Both the position numbers and the translations under genes were made by a program. Below are positions 32,732-51,001 of a DNA stretch of 64,000 nucleotides, piece by piece. How positions within the stretch are numbered: position 1 is the stretch's first letter; every line of letters begins with the position of its first letter. Source of the stretch: Myxococcales bacterium (lineage in GTDB: Bacteria > Myxococcota_A > UBA9160 > UBA4427); the NCBI GenBank assembly GCA_022563535.1, contig JADFNE010000019.1:3386-67385 (forward strand), in the 5' to 3' direction. The notes beneath the pieces were generated by a model. The model was not told the DNA's origin, did no database searches, and saw only the letters and a program-made list of their open reading frames with translations.

Positions 32732-33901
32732 TCACCCGGTGCCTCCCGGAAGCTCCGCTTCGCCGGCATCGTCGTCCCAACCGAAGCGCTCGAACAAAGG
32801 CGCGAGTTCGCGGCGAATTTCATCGGCCGCAAGACCGAATTCATCCAGGCTGTAGGCGTGACGCGTCTCATGGGTTCGCGCCCGCTTGTCTTCCGTGCGA
32901 AGCACTTCTCGGTATTCGTCGGAGATCGCAAACCCAAGCTGCTCGTAGCTGCGTTCGATCGTCTCGGCGGGGCGCGCGGTGAGATCGCGATAATCAATGA
33001 CTGCTTGTCGGGTCTCGGGATGCCTCGCGAGCACTTCGAGGGGATAGCGGTAGGTGTGGTAGGACTGGTCGGCGAGAAAGCGCAGGCTGCGCATGATGCC
33101 GTCCTCATCCCAGTCCAGCGCCCGGTAGCCGACCCGCATCAGTTTGAGCAGGCTGGGTATGGTTTCGTTTGGATTGCGCATGGGCACCACGATGCGGGCA
33201 TCCGGAAATGCTTCGATCAACGTCTCGACGCGACCCGCAAATACAGGGTTCTTGCTCAAGTGAATGCGATCACTCCCGTTCAACAACAACTGTCGGCGGA
33301 TGCAAGCCTTGTAAAAATCCATCATTCGCTTGCGTTCATGCGCTGGGCGCTCGTCGATGCGATAGAAATCGAGCTTCCCCATATAAGGCAACTTGGTCAT
33401 CCAGTAACCGGAAGCACAGGAGTAGTAGAAGACGATGTCGTCTTCTTCGGGTTGGGTGAGTCCCATGTCGTGTATGTCGCGAGTCGCCGCGTAGCGCTTC
33501 TCTTCCCAGGCCTGCACGAGTTTTGCGAGCACGCTGGAGAGAAAGCGCCGATCGAATTTGGCGACCGCACGAATCGCTTTCTTCTGCAAGAGAGAAGGGA
33601 AGTACAGCTCGTACAAATTGAAGGAGCTAAAGCGCCCATCGTCCTTGCTCATCAAACGATGCACCAACGTGGTTCCGCTGCGCGCGTGGCCGACTACGAA
33701 AACCGGGGTGCGGATCTCAACGTTGTGCAGGGCAGGGAAGAGGATGCCGTCGAGAAAGAAGCAGATCGCGTGAAACGACGAGATCAGGGGAACGCTCACG
33801 CACAGGATGAACAAAAAGTACCTGCGCGCCATGGGATGCGGTTCGTTCCACGCGAGGCGGAGCATGCGGAAGTACTGAGGGAAGTCGAAGTAGTACAGCA
33901 T
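32732..33901 (-). CDS. Sulfotransferase family protein
   Basis: A PAPS 5'-phosphosulfate-binding loop is present (VFVVGHARSGTTLVHRLM), with a later 3'-phosphate-binding-like segment. The longer opposite-strand ORF has no motifs. Confidence 0.8.
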   Translation of the reverse strand: MLYYFDFPQYFRMLRLAWNEPHPMARRYFLFILCVSVPLISSFHAICFFLDGILFPALHNVEIRTPVFVVGHARSGTTLVHRLMSKDDGRFSSFNLYELYFPSLLQKKAIRAVAKFDRRFLSSVLAKLVQAWEEKRYAATRDIHDMGLTQPEEDDIVFYYSCASGYWMTKLPYMGKLDFYRIDERPAHERKRMMDFYKACIRRQLLLNGSDRIHLSKNPVFAGRVETLIEAFPDARIVVPMRNPNETIPSLLKLMRVGYRALDWDEDGIMRSLRFLADQSYHTYRYPLEVLARHPETRQAVIDYRDLTARPAETIERSYEQLGFAISDEYREVLRTEDKRARTHETRHAYSLDEFGLAADEIRRELAPLFERFGWDDDAGEAELPGGTG

Positions 33902-37768: not shown

Positions 37769-38656
37769 ATGGTAGATCTAGAACACGATCTAGAACACAA
37801 AGACACGCATCGAAAAAGGCGTATCTCGGCCCAGGAACTGACGGCCGAGCGTGTCATCTCGGCCCTGCGGCGCCGGGTCGGAGATGTCCCGCATCGCTTC
37901 GCATGGAACGCAAGTCGCGGCCGCAGCCTCGCCAATCGCGAGCGGTTGCTCGACTACAGGGATCGCCACCGCGGACAGCGTTGTTTCATCCTGGGCAACG
38001 GGCCCAGTCTCGCCAAGATGGACCTTCGGCCCCTGGCCGGGGAGTGGACCTTTGGCATGAACCGAATCTACTTGCTGTTCGAACAGATGGGATTTCTGCC
38101 GAGCTATTACTGCGCGGCCAATGACCTGGTCATCGATCAGTTTGCGCAAGATATCGCCGCACTATCGATGCCCAAATTTCTCAATTGGAACGGCCGGAGC
38201 CACTTCGACCCGAACGACGCATCGCTGCTGTTTCTGCGCCAGGCCCTCACCCTGAGCGACTTCTTCGGCCGGGACCTCGCACGCCCCATCTGTTCGGGAG
38301 GAACGGTGACCTTCCTCGCTCTGCAGGTCGCCTACTACATGGGCTTCCAGCAGGTCGTCTTGATCGGCGTGGATCACAATTTTGTGGACAAGGGCACGCC
38401 CAACCGCGCCGTGACTCGAACCGCCGAAACCGACGAGAATCACTTTCACCCCGACTACTTTCCCAAGGGTTCGCGTTGGCAGCTGCCCGATCTATTGCGC
38501 TCGGAAGAAGCGTACCGACTCGCCCGGGAGGCCTATCAAGCCGACGGTCGCGAGATCGTCGATGCCACCGTGGGTGGAGCGCTCGAAGTCTTCGACAAGG
38601 CGGACTATAGCGACCTGGTCGAATTCGAAGACGACGCTGACGGTGTCGTCGGATGA
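37769..38656 (+). CDS. DUF115 / MptE-like (Maf-type) putative glycosyltransferase, paralog 1
   Basis: RCFILGNGPSL...TFGMNRIY...GGTVTFLALQVAYYMGFQQVVLIGVDHNF. The motifs align with the paralog at 41461..42306. Confidence 0.7.
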   Translation: MVDLEHDLEHKDTHRKRRISAQELTAERVISALRRRVGDVPHRFAWNASRGRSLANRERLLDYRDRHRGQRCFILGNGPSLAKMDLRPLAGEWTFGMNRIYLLFEQMGFLPSYYCAANDLVIDQFAQDIAALSMPKFLNWNGRSHFDPNDASLLFLRQALTLSDFFGRDLARPICSGGTVTFLALQVAYYMGFQQVVLIGVDHNFVDKGTPNRAVTRTAETDENHFHPDYFPKGSRWQLPDLLRSEEAYRLAREAYQADGREIVDATVGGALEVFDKADYSDLVEFEDDADGVVG

Positions 38657-38663
38657 GGGCGGC

Positions 38664-39425
38664 GTGACGAAGCCATCTCCACTCGAACTTCTGCGGAAAG
38701 AAAATCCCCTGTTCCAACTCGCGACGGGCAACGCAGACGTTCCCAGCAGCGAAGATTTGTTTGTCGCGCAGGGCGGGGTCGACACCCGACGTTTCCCTCG
38801 CGCCTCCGCGGCACTGCCCGCGGATAGCCTGGCTGCGGTCCATCGCTTGCTCAGTCCAGAGCAATCCACGATAGAAATTGGTGGCGGTCAATCGACAGTA
38901 GTCTTCGCCAGTACCGTGGCGCGGCACGTCTGCGTAAACCCGGATCGCACGGCAAACGAGCTGGTGCGTGAGTTTCTCGAACGTCACGGAATCTGGCGTG
39001 ACAACGTCGAGTTCCTCGGCGAATCCTCAGACACAGCGCTCCCGGGCCTCGAAGCCCCGGGCGGATTCGACGTCGCATTGATGGACGGAAATCACAGCTT
39101 CCCGTTTCCCATGCTCGACTGGCACTTTATCGATCGACACCTGCACCGAGGGAGCACGCTGATCGTCGACAATGTCGAGATCAACGCGGTCCGAATCCTC
39201 ACCGAGTACCTCGACGGCGAGCCCGCCTATCGACTGATCGAGCGCGTGCGCGAAAGTCATCGTTACGACTGTTACATCTACGAGAAGGTCCGGGATCGCG
39301 TCGTCTCGGGCTGGAACGCACAGGCGATCAATCGCACGACCCTGGCGAGCCTTTGCTTCGACGCCAGCTTGACCGCAATGTGGAAGCCGCTGCAGCGAAT
39401 CAAGCGCCGCATCCTCTCGAACTGA
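38664..39425 (+). CDS. Class I SAM-dependent methyltransferase (Methyltransf_24-like)
   Basis: TIEIGGGQSTVVF (motif I) and FDVALMDGNHSFPFPMLD are present. The start is set at GTG 38664, just after the upstream stop, with GAGGG upstream. Confidence 0.7.
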   Translation: MTKPSPLELLRKENPLFQLATGNADVPSSEDLFVAQGGVDTRRFPRASAALPADSLAAVHRLLSPEQSTIEIGGGQSTVVFASTVARHVCVNPDRTANELVREFLERHGIWRDNVEFLGESSDTALPGLEAPGGFDVALMDGNHSFPFPMLDWHFIDRHLHRGSTLIVDNVEINAVRILTEYLDGEPAYRLIERVRESHRYDCYIYEKVRDRVVSGWNAQAINRTTLASLCFDASLTAMWKPLQRIKRRILSN

Positions 39426-41460: not shown

Positions 41461-42306
41461 TTACAAGCTAGAGAACAGAGACTCGTAGTCCACGCGTTCG
41501 AAGACCTCGAGTTTGCCACCCACGCTCGCGTTGACAATCCGCCTGCCGCTCCGCTCGAACACGCGACGGGCCACGGTGTAGGACTTTTCCATGCGATGGG
41601 TCTGCGGGTCCCGCCAGCGATAGCCAGGGCCAAAGTAGTCCGGATCGAAGTGGTTTGGATCCGCACCGGTCGAGGTCCACTCGTGACCCCGGACAATGAG
41701 ATCGTCGGGCTTCGAGTAGGCGTGATCCATACCGAGCAAGATCACTTCTTCAAAACCCATGAAATAGGCCAGCTGCAAACAGATGTACGTCACGGTTCCC
41801 CCGCTGAAGAGCAGGCGAGTGGCATCGTTTGAAAACGCTGGCCAGTTCGCAGACTGGACGTCGTCGAAGTCCTGAATTCCCCGGTAGTAGTAGCGGTTGG
41901 ATCGGTTGAAGCCATGGCATTCGAGCTGCAGCGGAAAAAAACTGACGGAAGCGCGAACGAGGTCCTTGATGTCCTGGAAGCGATCTTCGTGGAACAGCGC
42001 GTCTTCGACGGCGTAGTAGGTCGATTCGAAGCCGAGCCAGTCGTGAAGCAAGAAGGTCCCATTCATCCCGAAAGTGAATTCGTTGGCGAGCGGGGCGGGG
42101 TCATGCTGCTTGAGCGAGGGACCGCAACCGAGAACGAAGCAGCGCTGTCCCGAGTGGATGTCCCGGAACTGCCCGATCCCCGGAGATGAAGAACGGGTGG
42201 CTCGGTACCAGGCATAGAACGCCCGCCGCAGTCCCGCCCGGGTCATCAGTTTCAGGGCTGTGCGCTCCCGGGGACTGAACACCCGCCGCATTTGATCGCG
42301 ATTCAC
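41461..42306 (-). CDS. DUF115 / MptE-like (Maf-type) putative glycosyltransferase, paralog 2
   Basis: RCFVLGCGPSL...TFGMNGTF...GGTVTYICLQLAYFMGFEEVILLGMDHAY, collinear with the gene at 37769..38656. Confidence 0.7.
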   Translation of the reverse strand: MNRDQMRRVFSPRERTALKLMTRAGLRRAFYAWYRATRSSSPGIGQFRDIHSGQRCFVLGCGPSLKQHDPAPLANEFTFGMNGTFLLHDWLGFESTYYAVEDALFHEDRFQDIKDLVRASVSFFPLQLECHGFNRSNRYYYRGIQDFDDVQSANWPAFSNDATRLLFSGGTVTYICLQLAYFMGFEEVILLGMDHAYSKPDDLIVRGHEWTSTGADPNHFDPDYFGPGYRWRDPQTHRMEKSYTVARRVFERSGRRIVNASVGGKLEVFERVDYESLFSSL

Positions 42307-43406: not shown

Positions 43407-43823
43407 TCAGGCGGCGCCGCGGTGCCCAAGCCGGATCCGACCGCTGATGTCGGTGAGTTCGACCATGGCCGCCTGTGCGTCTTCTAGCTTGTCGTCCCGG
43501 CAAGCATCGGCCACAACCGTGGCGACGACCGCGAGCGGGGTGTAACCCAGTTCGTCGGCCCGCTGGCGAAGTTTGGTCGCGAGTTCGCACAACAACGCGA
43601 GATCCTCATCGAGATCGGCGTCCTGGAGCCGGTCGACTTCTTCCGCCAGCGAAATGACGAAACTGTCAATGGCATCGCCGAGTGCAAGGTCGTCTTCGAG
43701 GGTGGAGAAAATGGGAGGCTGCTTCTTTTGGGGCATGCCCAACACATCGGCAGGACAATCCGGCCGCTGTACCGCGTATGCGACAGAGGCTTGTGGCGGG
43801 GGGGTCCCCGAAGGGAGTTCCAT
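43407..43823 (-). CDS. Hypothetical acidic helical protein
   Basis: A 138-aa ORF with coding-like composition and no catalytic motif. The start is uncertain (alternative ATG 43736). Confidence 0.5.
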   Translation of the reverse strand: MELPSGTPPPQASVAYAVQRPDCPADVLGMPQKKQPPIFSTLEDDLALGDAIDSFVISLAEEVDRLQDADLDEDLALLCELATKLRQRADELGYTPLAVVATVVADACRDDKLEDAQAAMVELTDISGRIRLGHRGAA

Positions 43824-43839
43824 GGCTCGTCCGGCTGGG

Positions 43840-44583
43840 CTAGCGAGCCTGCCCCTTGGCCTGGCGTCTCGGATTCGAATCGGCCTTTGGTTTCGCGAGA
43901 GACGCCGGGAACGAGAGCGTTCTTCCGTCCCGGGCTTCGAACTCGAGCATCAGCTTTCGCGGACTGGGCAGGTCCTTGAGCAGACGCAGGGAATCGGAGC
44001 CTTGTCGGAGCAGATGAATGCGCAACTTGCCACCGCGAAAATCGAGTGACTCGGTCACCGGCGGATCCGCGCCGACCTCACTCAACTGCAAACGCCCTTT
44101 GACGATGTCGAGTTCGAATCCCCGCTTGCGGCGCAGTTCGGCCTTGAAATCGCGAACCGCCGTATCGCGCCGCTTGGTATTGGGATGTCTCACCGCGAGT
44201 TCTCCAGTGATGTTGGGGGTGCGCCCACCAATTTCGGTAAAACAGCGCGATGCTGTGCCGGCCTCGAGTTCGAGATCGACAAAGCGAATGGTTCCCTCGG
44301 CGGGCCGTGTCACGCCAGTTCCGGGTTCGATCAAGATGCGCCGCAGGCCGCGCTGAGCCCGCCCGTCGATCTTGCAAATGAGTGGGCTCGCGTAATTGCC
44401 CTGGATCCAAATCAAGACGAGATCGTTGAGGCTGGCGGGGGTGAGTGTCTGTGCCCTCGCTTGCGAGAAGAGAGACATGACGAGAGTCAATCCCAGAGCC
44501 CAGCCGACCACAGATGCGAACGCCGCGCCCCGTTCGCGACGGACCTCGCGGTAGCCATGGGTTGATTCAATCGGGCGGAACAT
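43840..44583 (-). CDS. Hypothetical secreted protein
   Basis: 247 aa with a signal/TM segment (AAFASVVGWALGLTLVMSLFSQARAQ). It lies directly upstream of 43407..43823 on the same strand. Confidence 0.55.
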   Translation of the reverse strand: MFRPIESTHGYREVRRERGAAFASVVGWALGLTLVMSLFSQARAQTLTPASLNDLVLIWIQGNYASPLICKIDGRAQRGLRRILIEPGTGVTRPAEGTIRFVDLELEAGTASRCFTEIGGRTPNITGELAVRHPNTKRRDTAVRDFKAELRRKRGFELDIVKGRLQLSEVGADPPVTESLDFRGGKLRIHLLRQGSDSLRLLKDLPSPRKLMLEFEARDGRTLSFPASLAKPKADSNPRRQAKGQAR

Positions 44584-44734: not shown

Positions 44735-45016
44735 ATGAAGTGTTTTGTATGCAACGTCGGGATCGAACTCTCGGCCGAGGGACGCGTGGGCTTCCGTGAA
44801 TGTTGCGAGAGTTGCGGGGCAGATCTGCACATCTGCAAGAACTGCCGCTTCTACGACCCTACGGCCTACAACGAATGCAGCGAACCGAGCGCCGAGCGGG
44901 TGACGGATTCTGAACGGGCGAACCGTTGCGACTGGTTCAGTCCAAGCGACGAAGAGGGCGGGGCGAGTGTTCGCGCAGATTCGCTCGCCGATCTCGACGC
45001 GCTGTTCAAGAAGTAG
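44735..45016 (+). CDS. Small Cys-rich (zinc-ribbon-like) protein
   Basis: 93 aa with CxxC-type pairs: C-FVC, CCESC, CKNC, plus C...C. Confidence 0.6.
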   Translation: MKCFVCNVGIELSAEGRVGFRECCESCGADLHICKNCRFYDPTAYNECSEPSAERVTDSERANRCDWFSPSDEEGGASVRADSLADLDALFKK

Positions 45017-45107
45017 CTGGCCAAATCCCTCACGGGCCCAACCACGACCGCGCAAGGCTGAGTCAGTAAATTTCAGGCCGGCCGCAAATTACCCGATAGG
45101 ACAAATC

Positions 45108-45785
45108 ATGGACCGACGCGGAAAAGATACCTGGACAGTCTTCAAGATCATGGGGGAATTCGTTGAGGGTTTCGAAACCCTGCACGATTGCTGGCCCTCG
45201 GTTTCCGTTTTTGGCGGCGCTCGGGTCCGCCGGGGCAACCCGATCTATGGCCAGGCCGTGGAGATTGGGAGGGCGCTTTCCCACGCGGGCTTTACCGTGA
45301 TTACAGGCGGTGGCCCCGGTGTGATGGAAGCGGCCAACCGTGGTGCCCAGCAGGGTCCCCATGATTCGGTCGGATTGAACATCCGCTTGCCTTTTGAACA
45401 GAAACCGAACCCCTACACCGACAAGCTCGTCAACTTCAACTACTTCTTTGCGCGCAAGGTGATGTTCGTGAAATACGCTTGCGGGATCGTGGGCATGCCG
45501 GGGGGCTTCGGCACCATGGATGAGATATTCGAGGCCCTGACCCTCGTGCAGACGAAGAAGATTCAACGCATGCCGGTGGTGCTCTTCGGCAAGGACTACT
45601 GGAGCGGATTGATCAACTGGATGGAAGACCGCATGCTTGCAGATCGCATGATCGCCAAGAGCGACCTCAAGCTGTTCACGGTCACCGACGACTGCGAAGA
45701 GGTGATCAATGTCATGCTGCGACATCTAAAGCTGTTGCGGCGTCGGGGCGAACTCGAGACCAGTGCAGATCGCGAGACCCCCTAG
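45108..45785 (+). CDS. LOG / TIGR00730 family Rossmann-fold nucleotide phosphoribohydrolase
   Basis: GGGPGVMEAANRGA and PGGFGTMDEIFE are present. The start is at ATG 45108 (MDRRGKDTW). Confidence 0.9.
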   Translation: MDRRGKDTWTVFKIMGEFVEGFETLHDCWPSVSVFGGARVRRGNPIYGQAVEIGRALSHAGFTVITGGGPGVMEAANRGAQQGPHDSVGLNIRLPFEQKPNPYTDKLVNFNYFFARKVMFVKYACGIVGMPGGFGTMDEIFEALTLVQTKKIQRMPVVLFGKDYWSGLINWMEDRMLADRMIAKSDLKLFTVTDDCEEVINVMLRHLKLLRRRGELETSADRETP

Positions 45786-45815
45786 CTACCCCCTGGTTCC
45801 TTCGAAACCACGTGA

Positions 45816-47315
45816 TTACCAGGACGCAAAGACTGCGACCATGACGATCACCACTCCGGTCAGCCAGCTGACGCGATCCGTGGCCGCGAACAACACCGGA
45901 TCGTCGAGCAGAATCTTCCTCCGCGCCAAGAACCACATGCGCGAGACCCAGTACAGGAATGGAGGCATGATCAGCCAAAGCACGTTGGGGCGGGGATAGA
46001 GCCTGCTCACATCGTCGCTGGTCACGAACAAGCAGAGAACCAGGACTGCCATGTAGCCGGCGGCGAGCCCCATGGTCTCGATCATTCCGACATCCGTCAC
46101 TTCATATGCCCGACGCGCATTACTCTCCGCACCGATGTCTTCGGTCGCCAACAACTCTGCGTAGCGTTTGAGCAGCGCAAGACTCAGAAACATGAACATG
46201 CAGAATGCCAGCAGCCAGGGAGACAGCCTTACGTCGGCAGCCACGGCGCCGGCCAGCACTCGATGGGTAAAGAGTCCCGCCAGCACGAGCACGTCGAGAA
46301 ACAATTTCTGCTTCAGATAGAGGGAATAGGTAATTGTGAGCACCGTGTAGATCGCGAGCATTCCGGTTGCAATCAGCGGGAGCGCCGCAAAGGAGAGACC
46401 GAAACCGCCCAGCATAAGGCAGGCCAGCAACGCGACCCCGGTCGGAATGGGCAGCGTTCCCGCCGCGAAGGGTCGCATCCGTTTGCGTTCGTGTCGGCGA
46501 TCACTTTCGATGTCCAGCAGATCGTTGAGAAGGTAGGTCGCGGACGCAATACTGCAGAAACACGCGAAGGCAATCGCGACCTGAGTGACTTTCTCGAAAT
46601 TGCTCAGTTGGTGGGCGAGCAGCAGCGGTACCCACAGCAGGGCGTTTTTGATCCACTGGTAAATGCGCATGGACTTGATTGCGGGGGCCAGGCCCGGGGA
46701 ATCGGTCGAAAATCGCTTGACCTCGCCCTCGAAACTCTCGGCGGCCCGGACTGCGCCAGCACTCGGCTGTACCAGGATTGCCACGGCGGCGTGTCGCCAA
46801 ACGGGGATGTCAGCAGTGGAATTTCCGAGGTACTCGAACTCCGAGCCTCCGCAGTCGCGCTGAATGGCGTCGAGCTTCGCTTCGCTCAGCAGGTTCATTT
46901 CGCCGTCGCTCGCCAGCACCGCATCGAAGAAACCGAGATGTGCGGCGATCGGCTCGGCCATCAAACCATCGCTCGCCGTGGCGAGCACCAGACGCCGCCC
47001 CTTGGCCTTTTCCTCGCGCAGGTAGTCGAGCACCTGGCTGCGGTAGGGGAGCCGCGCTGGATCGAAGCTCACTCGCTGTGCAATGGCCCGCTTGAAGCCA
47101 GCCTTGCCCCGCAGCAACCAGATCGGCATGCTGAGCGCCCGGAAGGGCTGTTGGGCGGCCAGCAAGCAGATGGACTCCCACAGCATGTCTGTGCTGATCA
47201 GGGTGTCATCGAGGTCTACGTAAACAGGGCAGGTCGCGGTGGACATGGCTTGATTGCTTTCGGCCTCGGATTCGATCGAATTGGGGTGGGTGGTCGAAAA
47301 TTTGCAACCCAGCAT
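45816..47315 (-). CDS. Fusion protein: HAD-IB-type phosphatase (N-terminal) and UbiA-family prenyl-phosphate phosphoribosyltransferase-like domain (C-terminal)
   Basis: HAD motifs VYVDLDDTL (DxD), LATAS and GNSTADIP are present. The UbiA motif NDLLDIESDRRHERKRMRPFAAG closely matches the decaprenyl-phosphate phosphoribosyltransferase signature, and 8-9 TM helices follow. An alternative start is ATG 47246. Confidence 0.85.
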   Translation of the reverse strand: MLGCKFSTTHPNSIESEAESNQAMSTATCPVYVDLDDTLISTDMLWESICLLAAQQPFRALSMPIWLLRGKAGFKRAIAQRVSFDPARLPYRSQVLDYLREEKAKGRRLVLATASDGLMAEPIAAHLGFFDAVLASDGEMNLLSEAKLDAIQRDCGGSEFEYLGNSTADIPVWRHAAVAILVQPSAGAVRAAESFEGEVKRFSTDSPGLAPAIKSMRIYQWIKNALLWVPLLLAHQLSNFEKVTQVAIAFACFCSIASATYLLNDLLDIESDRRHERKRMRPFAAGTLPIPTGVALLACLMLGGFGLSFAALPLIATGMLAIYTVLTITYSLYLKQKLFLDVLVLAGLFTHRVLAGAVAADVRLSPWLLAFCMFMFLSLALLKRYAELLATEDIGAESNARRAYEVTDVGMIETMGLAAGYMAVLVLCLFVTSDDVSRLYPRPNVLWLIMPPFLYWVSRMWFLARRKILLDDPVLFAATDRVSWLTGVVIVMVAVFASW

Positions 47316-47425
47316 TCGTCTTCAGGTCGGCCAACTATACCAAGTTTCTGTATTTCAGTCCGATCCGAGCACGGTATCCTGCAGCGCGTGACGCCTTGCA
47401 AACCGGAACCAGGAATATTGCCGCA

Positions 47426-48178
47426 ATGAGCCGCACCACCATCGTCGTGCCCTGCTACAACGAAGCCAAACGCTTTGACGCCAAGGCGTTCGAGCTCGCA
47501 TTGGCCGATGTTCCGGGACTCGAATTTCTGTTCGTGAATGACGGCAGTGACGACGACACCCCGATCATGCTGCGCGCATTTGAAGAAAAGCACGAAGGGC
47601 GGGTGCAGGTCATCGATCTGGCACACAACCGAGGCAAGTCCCACGCGGTACGTGCCGGCATGCTCGCAGCACTGGCCGGAGACGCAACCTACTGCGGCTA
47701 TTGGGACGCCGACCTGGCAACACCGCTGAATGAAATTCCCCGCTTCGTGGAGGTCCTCGAAGCCAGGCCGCTGCTCGAACTCGTGATCGGATCCCGGGTC
47801 AAACTGCTCGGCCGCACGATCGAACGCAATCCGCTGCGGCACTATCTGGGACGCATCTCCGCCACCGTGACCTCCGTGCTGCTGGATCTCCCGGTCTACG
47901 ACACCCAGTGCGGGGCCAAGCTCTTTCGCAATAGCCCCGAAACGCAGAGTCTGTTCGCGGAAGCGTTCTTGAGCGGGTGGATATTTGACGTCGAACTCAT
48001 TGCACGAATGATCCAGCATCGCCGCACTGCAGGGCTGCCTTCGGCGGAATTCGCCATCTACGAACTCCCCCTGCGGCAGTGGCGTGACATGGCGGGATCA
48101 AAGCTCCGGGTGGGCCTGGCCTATGCCGGCGCATTCTGGGAGATCCTGCGGATTTACTGGCGCTACCTCCGCCACTGA
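47426..48178 (+). CDS. Family 2 glycosyltransferase (polyprenyl-phosphate glycosyltransferase-like)
   Basis: TIVVPCYNEAKRF, FVNDGSDDDT, and WDADLATP (the DxD-type motif) are present. The size (~250 aa) is typical of DPM1/GtrB-like enzymes. Confidence 0.85.
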   Translation: MSRTTIVVPCYNEAKRFDAKAFELALADVPGLEFLFVNDGSDDDTPIMLRAFEEKHEGRVQVIDLAHNRGKSHAVRAGMLAALAGDATYCGYWDADLATPLNEIPRFVEVLEARPLLELVIGSRVKLLGRTIERNPLRHYLGRISATVTSVLLDLPVYDTQCGAKLFRNSPETQSLFAEAFLSGWIFDVELIARMIQHRRTAGLPSAEFAIYELPLRQWRDMAGSKLRVGLAYAGAFWEILRIYWRYLRH

Positions 48179-48797
48179 ATCTGGAGTGCATAGCCAGAAT
48201 TGGCCGTATCGCGAGATCGCGACACCAAATTGCGATTTTCCAGGCGGGGTCCGGTGATCTGCGGAATTCGCTTGGCATGTTTTTTTTCAAAATAGTGCAA
48301 TTTTCTCTTGGATTCGAATTGCCGGTCGTGGTAAGTGTTATACACACGTGTGGGTCGAATCTCGGACGTACGGTTGAAGATCGCCGTACACACCCGAATC
48401 GAGCCCAATACGTCCAGTTCTGGCGTATGACGGGATGAATGAAGGCTGCTGGCCCTCACCACTCCAAAGCAACAAAAAGCACCGAAGTTCTAAAATAAAA
48501 AAGCTCAGCGACTAAGAAACACAAGCTGACGAATATTGACCTGACTGCGGCTCGATGGGGGGTTCGATCCGTTTCCCTGCGGGGAAGGAGGGCCCATCAG
48601 ATGCTGTGGAGTGGAACGTCTCCAAGCGATTACTCGCGCCAACCAAATACAAGCTCGATGCCGCGGATTCCGCGGAACCAATCCGTCTCCATCGCGACTC
48701 ACCTTCAAAATGAGTCCGGCTGGTCCCGGCTCGGTCGGTGCCGGTTTCGTTCAATCAAAGTCGATTTCGGCACACTCGGTTCACGGAGCCCAGAAAA

Positions 48798-50210
48798 ATG
48801 TTGAGAGAGCTGGGCCGAAGAATGCATCGGATTTGGCTGATCTTTGACGTATCGATTTGCATCGTCTTGTTTTCGGCCATCGTCTACCACCCGCAATTTG
48901 CGGAATCGAACAATCTTCAGGCCTATAGCCCGGTCGCAATCGGGATCATGGCGTTGTTCACCGGTTTCGGTTGGCAGATCATTCTGGGCCGCTGCCGGGT
49001 TTACGAATCCCACCGCCGGATCAACGTCTCGCAGCTGTTGAGGCGGCTGACGATGGGCAACTCCATTGGAGCTGCCACACTGGCGGCCGCACTCTTTACC
49101 GTCGGAATCGAAGCACCCCCGTTCATGCCTGTGGCCCTCGCGGTCGGAATCTTCACGGTGCAGGCCATCACGCGCATTTCGGCCATGATCCTGCTGCGGT
49201 CCATTCGCCGCAGCGGCAGGAATTTTCGCAACGTCTTGATCGTGGGGGCGGGGCCGCGCGCTCTAAACGCGACCAATACGATTCTCAATCACCCCGAGTG
49301 GGGTCTTCGCGTCATCGGCTACCTCGACGATTGGTACGGTGAGGATTTTCGGCCCTCCGTTCCCATCGACAAAATTCACAAGATCGTCGAGCTGCCTGAG
49401 CTGCTGCGCAACGAGACCGTGGACGAACTCCTGGTCGCCTGTCCACGCACGATGCTGATTACATTGACCCCGGTGGTGAACGAATGCGCACTCATCGGTG
49501 TACCCGTCACCGTGCTGGCCGATCTCTTTGGAGACCAGTTGCCCGCCCCGAAGGTCGGCATCCTCGGCTCCCACACGACCTTGAGCTTTGCACCTGTTCA
49601 CCACAACGAACTCGAGCTCATGGTGAAACGAGTGGTTGATATCCTGGGGGCCCTGGTCGGGTTGCTCCTCTCGGCGCCCATCGTCGCGGTCGCGGCGGTT
49701 CTGATCCGGCTCGATTCCAAGGGGCCGATCTTCTTCCGTCAGGAGCGCTGCGGGCTCAACGGTCGCCGCTTCGAGATGATCAAATTGCGCACCATGAACG
49801 ACGGAGCCGATGCTCACAAGCACGAACTCATGCATCTCAACGAGATGGACGGGCCGGTCTTCAAGCTCGCGAACGATCCTCGGATTACGCCGATCGGCCA
49901 CTTTTTGCGGCGCACCAGCATCGACGAATTTCCGCAGTTCCTGAACGTCCTGGTGGGCGACATGAGCCTGGTCGGCCCCCGTCCCCCAACTCCGGAAGAA
50001 GTGATCTGCTACGAGGGCGACACGCGCCGGCGTCTGTCCATGCGACCGGGTCTCACCTGCTATTGGCAGGTCGGTGGACGCAACAACATCAGCTTTGCCG
50101 AATGGATCCAGCTGGACTTGATGTACATCGACACCTGGTCCCTGCTGAACGATCTGGTGATCCTGCTGAAAACCGTGCCCACAGTCATCTTCACCCGCGG
50201 AGCCAGCTAA
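48798..50210 (+). CDS. Exopolysaccharide priming enzyme (polyprenyl-phosphate hexose-1-phosphate transferase, WbaP/WcaJ-like)
   Basis: ATG 48798 follows GGAGC. There are 4 N-terminal TM helices and a Rossmann-like linker. The C-terminal bacterial sugar transferase domain has KRVVDILGALVGLL...GPIFFRQERCGLNGRRFEMIKLRTM...DEFPQFLNVLVGDMSLVGPRP. Confidence 0.9.
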   Translation: MLRELGRRMHRIWLIFDVSICIVLFSAIVYHPQFAESNNLQAYSPVAIGIMALFTGFGWQIILGRCRVYESHRRINVSQLLRRLTMGNSIGAATLAAALFTVGIEAPPFMPVALAVGIFTVQAITRISAMILLRSIRRSGRNFRNVLIVGAGPRALNATNTILNHPEWGLRVIGYLDDWYGEDFRPSVPIDKIHKIVELPELLRNETVDELLVACPRTMLITLTPVVNECALIGVPVTVLADLFGDQLPAPKVGILGSHTTLSFAPVHHNELELMVKRVVDILGALVGLLLSAPIVAVAAVLIRLDSKGPIFFRQERCGLNGRRFEMIKLRTMNDGADAHKHELMHLNEMDGPVFKLANDPRITPIGHFLRRTSIDEFPQFLNVLVGDMSLVGPRPPTPEEVICYEGDTRRRLSMRPGLTCYWQVGGRNNISFAEWIQLDLMYIDTWSLLNDLVILLKTVPTVIFTRGAS

Positions 50211-50218
50211 CCGTCCCG

Positions 50219-51001
50219 CTAAAGTCCCGGCAGCGACGTAGTATTGCGATAGGCCGCTCCGGCCTGAATGACCGGCTGGAACGGAAACAAGATCTGCTGC
50301 AAGACATAACCAATCCGCGCCAGGATTGTCGGCGGCACCACGACAATGTCTCCGCTGAGCAGTTGAATATTGCTCGAAAGATCCCCCGATTGGATTCGAC
50401 TCAAATTCACTTGGAGGATCACCGGCTCGCAATGTAACCAGCATTGTGCGGGGTCTCGTGCAGCTCGAATCACCCGGACGTTGCGCTTTGACGCGAAGTT
50501 GGTCGTGCCGCCCAATTGTGCGATGGCTTCTGCCACCCGAATGTCGTGCTGGATGGGAAAGGTGCCCGGACTGCGGACTTCGCCGAATAACGTGATGGTG
50601 TCGCTCTCGGCTGCAATTACGGTCACGGTGACCGAAGCGTTGCGCTTGAAGCGGCCGATCTCCACCCGCACGGATTCGGCGATCTCCTCGGGCGTCATGC
50701 CCGCTGCCTGGAGATCACCAATCAAGTCCAGAGACACCTTGCCGTCCGGACGTACGGTCACAACTCGTTCGATCACGGGCTCGGGCAGAATGCTGATCAA
50801 GATCTGGTCGGGGGCGCCCACTCGATAGGGCACCGGTTTTGCCATCAAGGGCGGTGCGGCTGGCGAAACGCAGGCGATCGGGCCGAGCAGCGAAAGACCC
50901 ACCGCGACCAAGAGCAGCGCAAGCGGCGCCGTCCTCCGCTTTTCATGCTGTGCCTGATTCGCAAATTGAATTGGATTGGAGTGCACGGTTGATCCCCCCA
51001 C
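50219..51001 (-). CDS. Polysaccharide export outer-membrane lipoprotein (Wza-like: Poly_export plus SLBB)
   Basis: A lipobox is present (LLGPIAC). YRVGAPDQILISI and VRPDGKVSLDLIGDLQAAGMTPEEIAESV match the export-protein pattern. The start may instead be GTG 50986, which follows GGGGGGA. Confidence 0.85.
   Translation of the reverse strand: MGGSTVHSNPIQFANQAQHEKRRTAPLALLLVAVGLSLLGPIACVSPAAPPLMAKPVPYRVGAPDQILISILPEPVIERVVTVRPDGKVSLDLIGDLQAAGMTPEEIAESVRVEIGRFKRNASVTVTVIAAESDTITLFGEVRSPGTFPIQHDIRVAEAIAQLGGTTNFASKRNVRVIRAARDPAQCWLHCEPVILQVNLSRIQSGDLSSNIQLLSGDIVVVPPTILARIGYVLQQILFPFQPVIQAGAAYRNTTSLPGL

Follow-up and report, generated by a model that had tools for sequence, protein, structure and literature searches.

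Gene organisation of the locus

Within the 64,000-nucleotide stretch of DNA that was analysed (the window), one gene on the minus strand (45816..47315) encodes a HAD-type phosphoribose phosphatase (PRP) fused to a UbiA-fold polyprenyl-phosphate 5-phosphoribosyltransferase (PPPRS). This assignment is based on the ORF and its translation, Pfam, the NCBIfam model NF006088 and an AF2 model (pLDDT 90.8). The gene is one intact ORF of 499 aa without internal stops. Since residues 1-24 are unstructured and not conserved across the family, Met24 may be the true start codon, which would shorten the protein to 476 aa. The HAD-IB-like PRP domain (46701..47234, minus strand; approximately residues 28-205) matched PF12710 at residues 34-172 (E 5e-10), and the UbiA-fold domain (45819..46700, minus strand; residues 206-499), which contains nine TM helices, matched PF01040 at residues 240-429 (E 3e-19). 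NF006088, a model that covers the fused architecture over its full length, gave 600.3 bits (cut-off 351 bits), with residues 21-498 aligned to profile positions 4-480 of 482. This model (PRK08238) carries the generic name 'UbiA family prenyltransferase' and states no function. An N-terminal HAD phosphatase and a C-terminal UbiA domain in a single ORF had been proposed from the sequence beforehand, and both the motifs and the profile matches agree with this. The same fused architecture is common to more than 6000 protein clusters.

Upstream, and divergently oriented, lies a GT2 glycosyltransferase gene (47426..48178, plus strand) coding for 250 aa from an ATG or 260 aa from a TTG at 47396. Its product matched PF00535 (E 3e-17), in line with the GT2 neighbour of the original prediction. 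The region between the two genes (47316..47425), delimited on the sequence, is presumed to be a shared promoter region. The divergent pair was also present in L019, where the GT2 orthologue is 67% identical, and in L021, L024, L026-L028 and L053-L058; within the genus group, the divergent pairing of the GT2 with the fusion gene is conserved. Only the GT2 core was recognised (PF00535), the profiles for ArnC (37 bits, cut-off 529) and PpgS (27 bits, cut-off 370) scored far below their cut-offs, and the matches to ArnC/DPMS entries of the PDB were weak (~28-30 bits) and covered the N-terminal part alone. The GT2 sequence shows no obvious hydrophobic helix at its C-terminus. It is this weak N-terminal similarity to ArnC/DPMS that would make the GT2 a candidate polyprenyl-phosphate sugar synthase.

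On the other side, a LOG/TIGR00730-family gene (44967..45785, plus strand) is convergent with the fusion gene and was assigned by Pfam Lysine_decarbox, TIGR00730 (143 bits) and synteny. Its start is probably near 45108, since the calls in relatives are 225 aa long. Beyond the GT2 gene we found the priming transferase and the Wza-like exporter that had been noticed earlier. The former is a polyprenyl glycosylphosphotransferase, the EPS priming enzyme (48738..50210, plus strand; Bac_transf and CoA_binding_3; TIGR03025 375 bits, cut-off 296), and the latter an outer-membrane polysaccharide export protein (50219..51001, minus strand; Poly_export and SLBB). Both genes are missing from the otherwise syntenic L054. 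Two further conserved genes on the minus strand encode P0123 (43840..44583; 247 aa), which has a hydrophobic, signal-peptide-like N-terminal segment and no Pfam match, and P0124 (43407..43823; 138 aa), an acidic protein that is always paired with it. When 17 family-level regions were compared, the fusion gene was found in 16, P0123 in 12 and P0124 in 11 of them. Throughout the family P0123 is encoded downstream of the operon, directly after DprE2 in L021, and its AF2 model reached a pLDDT of only 60.8.

The UbiA half is related to phosphoribosyltransferases

All motifs on which the original prediction was built were found in the translation, namely the HAD motifs DLDDT (residues 34-38), LATAS (111-115) and GNSTAD (164-169) and the UbiA motif NDLLDIESDRRHERKRMRPFAAG at residues 264-286. 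To assess the catalytic positions we used an alignment of 41 homologues. In the PRP domain D34 and D36, which form the DxD, and D169 were invariant, while T113 and K147 were nearly invariant. The PPPRS domain has NDxxDxxxD in loop II and R..E in loop IV, and all its key positions (K223, Y261, N264, D265, D268, D272, R384 and E387) were invariant. One clade-specific change was observed in motif I, G37D, where 38 of the 41 homologues have Gly.

The closest solved structure was that of Mycobacterium tuberculosis Rv3806c (8j8j), both by sequence (phmmer against the PDB, E 1e-26) and by fold, where a Foldseek search with the AF2 model gave a target TM-score of 0.84 compared to 0.62-0.74 for the remaining UbiA folds. 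The N-terminal half of the model resembled the HAD-IB structure 3fvv and SerB structures. The PRPP/Mg ligands K28, Y70, N73 and D77 of Rv3806c align with K223, Y261, N264 and D268, respectively. Two other Rv3806c residues are replaced in the fusion protein: Q135 corresponds to T327, where 37 of 41 family members have Thr, and Y157 corresponds to F349, where 33 of the 41 have Tyr and 8 have Phe. We also compared the protein to ORF15 of Citrobacter youngae using the published residue list (PMC11127046) rather than a direct sequence comparison. D18, the set N247, D248, D251 and D255, and R366 and E369 of ORF15 correspond to D34, to N264, D265, D268 and D272, and to R384 and E387, with a constant offset of 16-18 residues.

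A prenyltransferase of the aromatic, quinone or heme type with an attached phosphoserine-phosphatase-like domain could also be envisaged, because the protein belongs to the general UbiA Pfam family and JGI names homologues '4-hydroxybenzoate polyprenyltransferase/phosphoserine phosphatase'. However, none of the NCBIfam models of the UbiA, CyoE, MenA and DGGGP synthase type was matched (19-37 bits, cut-offs 180-353), and the Rv3806c residues that bind ribose 5-phosphate are conserved. Moreover, in the domain tree the UbiA half sits with Rv3806c-type enzymes and not with quinone or heme prenyltransferases, and branches of more than 6 substitutions per site lie between it and the three other UbiA paralogues of the same genome. 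Sequence and modelled fold thus effectively refute a prenyltransferase of this kind, which we regard as extremely improbable. The models that ranked next after NF006088 were those for DPPR synthase, NF008978, NF008977 and NF008976, with 154, 132 and 126 bits, which do not reach their cut-offs of 207, 234 and 474. Judged by these profile scores, the fusion protein is a homologue and not an equivalog of decaprenyl-phosphate phosphoribosyltransferase. Sequence, fold and tree assign the UbiA half to the polyprenyl-phosphate phosphoribosyltransferases, and the mechanism of the original prediction is therefore very probably correct. The fused enzyme is ordinary for its type; the architecture was already published in 2024 and is curated, and we do not present it as a discovery.

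The dprE1/dprE2 pair is missing from the locus

In all five congeners compared (5/5), and likewise in most genomes of the family, DprE1/E2-like genes follow directly after the fusion gene. The DprE1-like protein of a congener scored 477 bits on the DprE1 model. In the window, only a 30-bp junction (45786..45815) separates the stop codon of the fusion gene from that of the LOG gene, and synteny with L019 and L021 places the dprE1-like and dprE2-like genes of the congeners (~2.2 kb) at exactly this position. The same empty junction was found in the independent assemblies L053, L055 and L057, and the pair was likewise lacking from independent assemblies with 99%, 79%, 77% and 75% identity. The DprE-less loci form a clade with 100/100 support that is nested among DprE-bearing loci. 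All this suggests that dprE1/E2 were apparently deleted from the locus in this lineage. A search of the window's contig with tblastn detected no DprE1/E2-like sequence. The earlier statement that DprE genes are lacking thus holds for this contig, but not for the genome, where a distant DprE2/DprE1-like pair lies on another contig (C82).

With two of the three operon genes gone, and with the G37D change in motif I, the fusion gene might be regarded as a remnant in decay whose function was lost along with dprE1/E2. In contrast to this, its ORF is intact, five independent members of the DprE-less clade have preserved every catalytic residue, and the divergent GT2 partner was retained too. In addition, dN/dS of the fusion gene within the clade was 0.15-0.21, the same as between clade and non-clade sequences. 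The fusion gene is still under purifying selection after the loss of dprE, and we consider decay very unlikely.

An unlinked DprE2/DprE1-like pair

On contig C82, a full-length gene of the DprE1 family lies next to a gene for a DprE2-like SDR. The pair scored 292 bits on the DprE1 model NF053785 (cut-off 500 bits) and 139 bits on the DprE2 model (cut-off 250 bits). The oxidase aligned end to end with M. smegmatis DprE1 (192 bits), and the conserved AKDS stretch is intact. Because dprE1/E2 are missing from the fusion locus, ribofuranose is the most likely donor sugar, a reading that we hold with moderate confidence. The other outcome, that the end product is still polyprenyl-P-D-arabinofuranose and the C82 pair functionally replaced the deleted operon-linked pair, appears less likely to us, even though these features of the pair speak for it. 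Its distribution does so as well. An orthologue of the C82-type oxidase was found in none of 40 relatives of the order that were searched (0/40). Using a threshold of E 1e-30 or better, 27 of these 40 had one DprE1-family match (29-37% identity, mostly the operon-linked gene) and 13 had none. The only DprE1-family gene of the present genome is the one on C82, which the relatives lack, and the distributions are in this sense complementary. C82-type relatives at 81-82% identity also share a sequencing run or study with DprE-less PPPRS contigs.

Against a replacement, the C82 pair is just 33-35% identical to the operon-linked enzymes and stays well under both equivalog cut-offs. We compared the neighbourhood of the pair at four loci, one in this genome and three in relatives at 56-84% identity. 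The surrounding genes there are of non-glycan type, encoding FMO, P450, Rieske/KshA-like proteins, amidohydrolases, SDRs, a metallophosphatase and TetR. At none of the four was there a PPPRS, GT-C or flippase gene within 10 kb of the pair. The C82-type pair and PPPRS co-occurred in 15 of 15 genomes, which is uninformative given that a PPPRS-like gene was found in 230 of the 251 sampled genomes of the phylum (92%). We also searched for an 'empty site' of the C82 pair in the congeners, but it was not recovered, the flanking genes being on different contigs there.

Flippase and GT-C candidates are not linked to the fusion gene

Among the ORFs of the window between ~29 and 59 kb, no flippase gene of the MATE, SMR or GtrA type was found beside the PPPRS gene. 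The genome gave no match to the GtrA family (PF04138) or the SMR family (PF00893), and its four MATE genes are on other contigs. A genome-wide search for GT-C and DprE genes had been suggested together with the original prediction; it returned 35 PMT_2 matches, in addition to the C82 pair, but none of the PMT_2 matches is on contig C26 and no GT-C gene was recognised beside the PPPRS gene. Nor did the PMT_2 proteins of this genome have a homologue within 10 kb of PPPRS in 22 related loci.

Several other candidates were rejected. The Variovorax operon contains a GtrA gene and an ORF of 698 aa (a possible GT-C without Pfam family), neither of which has a homologue in this genome. In seven other genera of the family, the neighbours that are conserved in divergent orientation turned out to encode a carbamoyltransferase and an SxtJ-like small membrane protein instead of a GT-C or flippase; the corresponding genes of this genome are on C13, unlinked to the fusion gene. 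Contig C109 has a MATE gene and two GT-C genes of TMEM260-like type, but the intervening genes are unrelated, and hence no link was made.

Proposed pathway and significance

We propose that the fusion protein is probably a PRP-PPPRS, a bifunctional enzyme that makes polyprenyl-phosphate ribofuranose. Its UbiA-fold domain would work on the cytoplasmic side of the inner membrane and transfer 5-phosphoribose from PRPP onto a polyprenyl phosphate, which is presumably undecaprenyl phosphate. The fused HAD domain would then strip the 5-phosphate and leave polyprenyl-P-ribofuranose. The congeners still have the ancestral operon intact, in which the translationally coupled DprE1-like oxidase and DprE2-like reductase would turn this product into polyprenyl-P-arabinofuranose. 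Both epimerase genes are missing from the locus in this genome and those closest to it, where the donor most likely remains ribofuranose. It would subsequently be flipped by some flippase and used by one of the many GT-C transferases of the genome, and the sugar would decorate an envelope glycan or protein. The core of the original prediction, a lipid-linked pentose that is made and dephosphorylated by one protein for an extracytoplasmic glycosyltransferase, is consistent with every test and is supported by the biochemistry of ORF15, which has the same architecture (PMC11127046).

Conceptually this adds little, as the fused enzyme belongs to a very large family and was characterised together with its pathway in 2024. 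What is particular to this lineage is the loss of dprE1/E2 next to a retained fusion gene. Tentatively, we suggest that the sub-lineage rewired a conserved lipid-linked arabinofuranose pathway by deleting dprE1/dprE2 while PRP-PPPRS and the GT2 were kept under selection. The outcome might be a switch from Araf to Ribf, or epimerisation by a DprE2/DprE1-like cassette of unrelated context that belongs to a large uncharacterised branch. The clean loss provides a natural contrast between Araf-capable and probably Ribf-only congeners, which can be used for finding the acceptor and the GT-C, and the unlinked C82 cassette points to an unstudied branch of the enzyme pair. Given the frequency of PPPRS-like genes in the sampled phylum genomes, lipid-linked pentofuranose donors may be a core envelope feature of the phylum. 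No description of such a glycan in these bacteria was found in the literature searched, and the top-ranked literature matches included no relevant paper on Myxococcota with DprE1 or arabinofuranose.

Comparison with known systems

In the DPA pathway of M. tuberculosis (Rv3806c, Rv3807c, DprE1 and DprE2), Rv3806c is the nearest relative of the UbiA domain in sequence and fold, and the DprE1/E2-like genes directly downstream of the fusion gene in the congeners are a further likeness. The two systems differ in the phosphatase, which is a fused HAD domain here and the separate PAP2-type Rv3807c in M. tuberculosis, and in the lipid carrier, probably C55 here but C50 there. Moreover, the fusion protein scores below the DPPR-synthase cut-off (154 versus 207 bits) and the epimerase pair is missing at its locus. 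A second likeness is found in Pseudomonas aeruginosa PA7/Pa5196, where, as cited in PMC11127046, D-arabinofuranose on the pilin depends on a stand-alone PPPRS, DprE1/E2 homologues and the GT-C TfpW. According to that citation, this is also a Gram-negative route from PRPP via lipid-P-Ribf to lipid-P-Araf for extracytoplasmic glycosylation, but the PPPRS is described without a fused phosphatase, and both the GT-C and its target, the pilin, are known there.

A further parallel is ORF15 of C. youngae O1/O2, part of a three-component system for pentofuranose side chains (Kelly et al., PNAS 2024, PMC11127046). When assayed in vitro, ORF15 used PRPP to form farnesyl-P-Ribf, and the 5-phosphate form accumulated with the D18A mutant (PMC11127046). 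Both proteins have an N-terminal HAD/PRP domain followed by a C-terminal UbiA PPPRS domain with nine TM helices, their catalytic positions are collinear, and the predicted chemistry, from PRPP and polyprenyl-P to polyprenyl-P-Ribf, would be the same. In Citrobacter a MATE flippase and a GT136 GT-C are adjacent, whereas neither is linked to the locus in the uncultured Myxococcota-like bacterium studied here, and the ancestral epimerase is a GalE-like SDR there compared to the DprE1/E2 pair here. In Citrobacter the loss of an epimerase gene switches the sugar, from Xylf in O2 to Ribf in O1, and the loss of dprE1/E2 would be the parallel to this here.

Identity of the fusion protein

The PRP-PPPRS fusion gene (45816-47315, minus strand) is a single uninterrupted ORF of 499 codons; together with the divergent GT2 gene it makes up exactly the stretch described in the original prediction. 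All HAD motifs named there were present in the translation (DLDDT at residues 34-38, LATAS at 111-115 and GNSTAD at 164-169), as was the UbiA signature NDLLDIESDRRHERKRMRPFAAG at residues 264-286. Pfam placed a HAD domain (PF12710, E 5e-10) at residues 34-172 and a UbiA domain (PF01040, E 3e-19) at residues 240-429. Antisense to the fusion gene there is an ORF of 388 codons (46263-47429, plus strand). Among relatives it recurred only as a shadow of the conserved gene, and it was not counted as a gene.

The protein matched NF006088 (PRK08238), a curated full-length NCBIfam model that covers exactly the HAD-UbiA architecture, from end to end with 600 bits (cut-off 351). The next-best models were three decaprenyl-phosphate phosphoribosyltransferase families (154, 132 and 126 bits, each under its own cut-off), and the models for heme O synthase, 4-hydroxybenzoate prenyltransferase and prenyltransferases of archaeal lipids scored only 19-37 bits. 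When solved structures were searched by sequence, just two entries were returned, both of M. tuberculosis DPPR synthase Rv3806c (8j8j, E 1e-26). An AlphaFold model based on 41 homologues (pLDDT 90.8, pTM 0.86) showed a Rossmann-type domain and, after it, nine long helices, with disorder limited to residues 1-24. Foldseek ranked Rv3806c first (target-normalised TM-score 0.84, other UbiA folds 0.62-0.74), and the N-terminal half was matched by HAD-IB proteins (3fvv, SerB).

In a maximum-likelihood tree of UbiA domains, the domain grouped with PPPRS-type enzymes. The stand-alone clade including Rv3806c and the fused-type sequences formed one poorly resolved PPPRS group, and the three other UbiA paralogues of the genome were set apart by branches of more than 6 substitutions per site. 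Given this placement, a grouping with quinone or heme prenyltransferases was not seen in the tree. The observation of a HAD phosphatase fused to a phosphoribosyltransferase-like UbiA domain is confirmed. The proposed mechanism, in which a HAD phosphatase coupled to an Rv3806c-like phosphoribosyltransferase is predicted to synthesise and dephosphorylate a lipid-linked pentose in one polypeptide, is supported by the family models, the fold, the tree, the catalytic residues and the precedent of ORF15.

Conservation of catalytic residues

In the Rv3806c structure, the ribose 5-phosphate is contacted by K28, Y70 and Y157, N73 and D77 are Mg/pyrophosphate ligands and Q135 contacts the ribose (PMC10994848). 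According to the HMMER alignment, these residues correspond to K223 (K28), Y261 (Y70), F349 (Y157), N264 (N73), D268 (D77) and T327 (Q135). Position 327 is Thr in 37/41 fused homologues, and position 349 is Tyr or Phe. Invariant in all 41 were D34, D36, D169, K223, N224, Y261, N264, D265, D268, D272, R273, H275, R281, K383, R384 and E387, with T113 and K147 near-invariant. Since D34, D36, D169, T113 and K147 are thus conserved, the HAD motifs are catalytically aligned. HAD motif I carries a G37D change (DLDGT to DLDDT; codon 37, window 47203-47205) at a position that is Gly in 38/41 homologues. This change is common to exactly the clade that has no dprE1/dprE2 at the locus (P0001, P0003-P0006 and P0009) and was not found in the DprE-bearing relatives.

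Absence of dprE1 and dprE2 at the locus

Two metagenomic relatives (71% and 65% identity) share the gene order der, miaA, mutL, regulator, nitrilase-family gene, FHA, wza, priming transferase and GT2, with PRP-PPPRS, DprE1-like and DprE2-like genes divergent from GT2, followed by LOG in the 71% relative only. In the latter, the start codon of the DprE1-like gene and the stop codon of PPPRS overlap. The operon-linked DprE-like proteins of the relatives matched well. For the DprE1-like one, NF053785 gave 477 bits (cut-off 500) and M. smegmatis DprE1 gave 294 bits; for the DprE2-like one, NF053786 gave 166 bits, and the SDR model NF005489 was passed. A DprE1-like gene directly follows the fusion gene in 5/5 same-genus genomes and most family genomes, and of the 16 fusion-carrying loci compared at family level, 13 have one within 10 kb.

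In the window, the site occupied by dprE1/dprE2 in relatives is an empty junction of 30 bp between the stop codons of PPPRS (45816) and LOG (45785). This is not an assembly artefact, because an independent assembly carrying a 99%-identical gene (L053) has the same junction, as do contigs from four other runs that belong to relatives with 79%, 77% and 75% identity. In the fused-protein tree, the DprE-less sequences form a clade with 100/100 support nested within the DprE-bearing genus, and a single deletion of dprE1/dprE2 is therefore the simplest reading. Within this clade the dN/dS of the fusion gene was 0.15-0.21, comparisons of clade with non-clade sequences gave the same result, and all catalytic residues are retained. 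This constraint indicates that the synthase is still in use after the epimerase loss. A sister-group copy of the fusion without DprE genes (L079, P0016, 66% identity) lies among transposase, IS21, toxin-antitoxin and GDSL-lipase genes, a setting which suggests that the fusion gene can be relocated by mobile elements.

Predicted sugar product

The original prediction had drawn a ribofuranose product from missing DprE1/DprE2 genes. By tblastn, no DprE-like sequence was found on the window's contig, and the deletion strengthens the argument for ribofuranose. For the genome as a whole the absence of DprE genes did not hold, as a distant pair is encoded on another contig, C82 (32887-35102; 8888-11103 of region L022), with a DprE2-like SDR gene immediately upstream of a DprE1-like FAD oxidase gene. 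This order was seen in 4/4 loci of the C82 type examined; in the window's own genome the pair is flanked by FMO, SDR, amidohydrolase and HEAT-repeat genes. Compared with the operon-linked enzymes of congeners, the C82 pair is 33-35% identical, and its oxidase is the genome's one DprE1-family gene. The oxidase matched the DprE1 model over its full length (292 bits) and could be aligned from end to end with M. smegmatis DprE1, the conserved AKDS stretch near the C-terminus being intact.

This pair could have taken over from the deleted genes, giving Araf as the product. In agreement with such a replacement, a search of 40 relatives within the order found a C82-type orthologue in none; a single DprE1-family hit (E 1e-30 or better, 29-37% identity), in most cases the operon-linked gene, was present in 27 and none in 13. 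The C82 type being absent where the operon-linked type occurs, the two are complementary in distribution. Moreover, the run or the study that yielded C82-type relatives (82% and 81% identity) also yielded DprE-less PPPRS contigs. However, the C82 type itself is a large family (3335 clusters), and its neighbours in the four loci examined (one in the own genome, three in relatives with 56-84% identity) seem to be catabolic genes, not glycan-related ones: P450, Rieske/KshA-like, amidohydrolase, SDR, metallophosphatase, TetR and PhyH genes, with no PPPRS, flippase or GT-C within 10 kb. In the phylum sample, the C82 type co-occurred with a PPPRS-like gene in 15/15 genomes that have it, a comparison without power because such UbiA genes, mostly stand-alone and of 290-350 aa, occur in 230/251 sampled genomes of the phylum. 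We regard Araf made through the C82 pair as a doubtful alternative and give lipid-linked Ribf about an even chance of being the end product, the remaining probability going to other outcomes. A sugar switch through epimerase loss has a precedent in the O2-to-O1 change of Citrobacter (PMC11127046).

Neighbouring genes and candidate partners

As predicted, the divergent neighbour is a GT2 gene (47426-48178, plus strand, alternative TTG start 47396; PF00535, E 3e-17), whose tentative assignment to the DPM1/ArnC/GtrB class is based on a weak similarity confined to the N-terminal part. It is kept as the divergent partner throughout the genus group. A LOG/TIGR00730 gene (44967-45785, plus strand) is convergent with the fusion gene. 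The expected EPS priming glycosylphosphotransferase (48738-50210, plus strand; TIGR03025, 375 bits) and Wza-like exporter (50219-51001, minus strand) were also found, and beyond the latter lie a sigma-54-activator-like gene, mutL, miaA and der. The otherwise syntenic locus L054 (79% identity, Logan SRR24309842) has neither EPS gene between FHA and GT2 and keeps the GT2/PPPRS pair, so these genes are not obligatory partners of the pair. In seven other genera of the family (L081-L088), the position divergent from the PPPRS operon is taken by a NodU/CmcH-type carbamoyltransferase gene with a gene for a small SxtJ-like membrane protein behind it, and DprE2 is followed by a GalE/UXS-like SDR gene. 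Own-genome orthologues of these neighbours are unlinked, on contigs C13 (29566-31842) and C32.

Downstream of the PPPRS operon, two genes without a Pfam family (43407-44583, minus strand) encode P0123 (247 aa, signal-peptide-like N-terminus; AF2 model of low confidence, pLDDT 60.8) and P0124 (138 aa, acidic). They hold this position in 11-12 of 17 family-level regions compared, and in one relative directly follow DprE2. Two MptE-like (PF01973) genes with a Methyltransf_24 gene (37769-39425 and 41461-42306) and a sulfotransferase gene (32732-33901, minus strand) may be further glycan-tailoring genes near the locus.

The published system requires a flippase and a GT-C (PMC11127046). Neither is linked to the fusion gene at the locus. 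Searching the genome for GT-C proteins gave 35 PMT_2 matches, 33 above the Pfam cut-off and none on the window's contig; for a genome of 4.6 Mb, so large a set of lipid-linked-donor-dependent transferases is unusual. In 22 related loci, no gene within 10 kb of PPPRS was homologous to any of the genome's GT-C proteins. Four MATE genes lie elsewhere in the genome, and no GtrA- or SMR-family gene was detectable in it. Contig C109 has a MATE gene at its end and, a few kb away from it, two TMEM260-like GT-C genes.

Comparison with known systems

The fusion is widely conserved, with at least 6054 protein clusters matching at E 1e-5 or better and both Pfam domains in all 120 best of these. It is also encoded on 97 plasmid or chromid records, solely annotated as 'UbiA family prenyltransferase'. 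The source names attached to homologues agree with an uncultured Myxococcota as the host of the window's gene. Among the 251 phylum genomes, the HAD-fused form is limited to a few families (f1, f12 and f26). By contrast with the window, a Variovorax homologue (43% identity) lies in a typical compact operon of FkbM methyltransferase, PRP-PPPRS, DprE1, DprE2, NAD epimerase, amine-oxidase-like flavoprotein, GtrA, a 698-aa ORF without Pfam family (possible GT-C) and GT2.

The characterised example is ORF15 of Citrobacter youngae O1 (Kelly, Duong, Nothof, Lowary and Whitfield, PNAS 2024; PMC11127046), in which a HAD domain termed 'phosphoribose phosphatase' (PRP) occupies the N-terminus and is fused to a polyprenyl phosphoribofuranose synthase (PPPRS) of the UbiA family. 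Membranes with ORF15 converted PRPP and farnesyl phosphate to farnesyl-P-ribofuranose, the D18A variant accumulated the 5-phosphorylated product, and N247, D248, D251 and D255 were needed for activity (PMC11127046). According to its authors, a MATE flippase and a GT-C (GT136) use the donor for periplasmic alpha-pentofuranose side chains, optional epimerases (GalE-like ORF13 or DprE1/E2 homologues) turn Ribf into Xylf or Araf, and candidate systems occur in many bacteria (PMC11127046). The published ORF15 positions D18, N247, D248, D251, D255, R366 and E369 correspond to D34, N264, D265, D268, D272, R384 and E387 here, and from this constant offset of 16-18 residues the two proteins are collinear. 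The window's fusion is a known, curated and recently characterised kind of enzyme, and its architecture is not new. The sole unusual point is that this clade has apparently lost the coupled epimerase genes and kept the synthase, with a possible substitute pair at an unlinked site.
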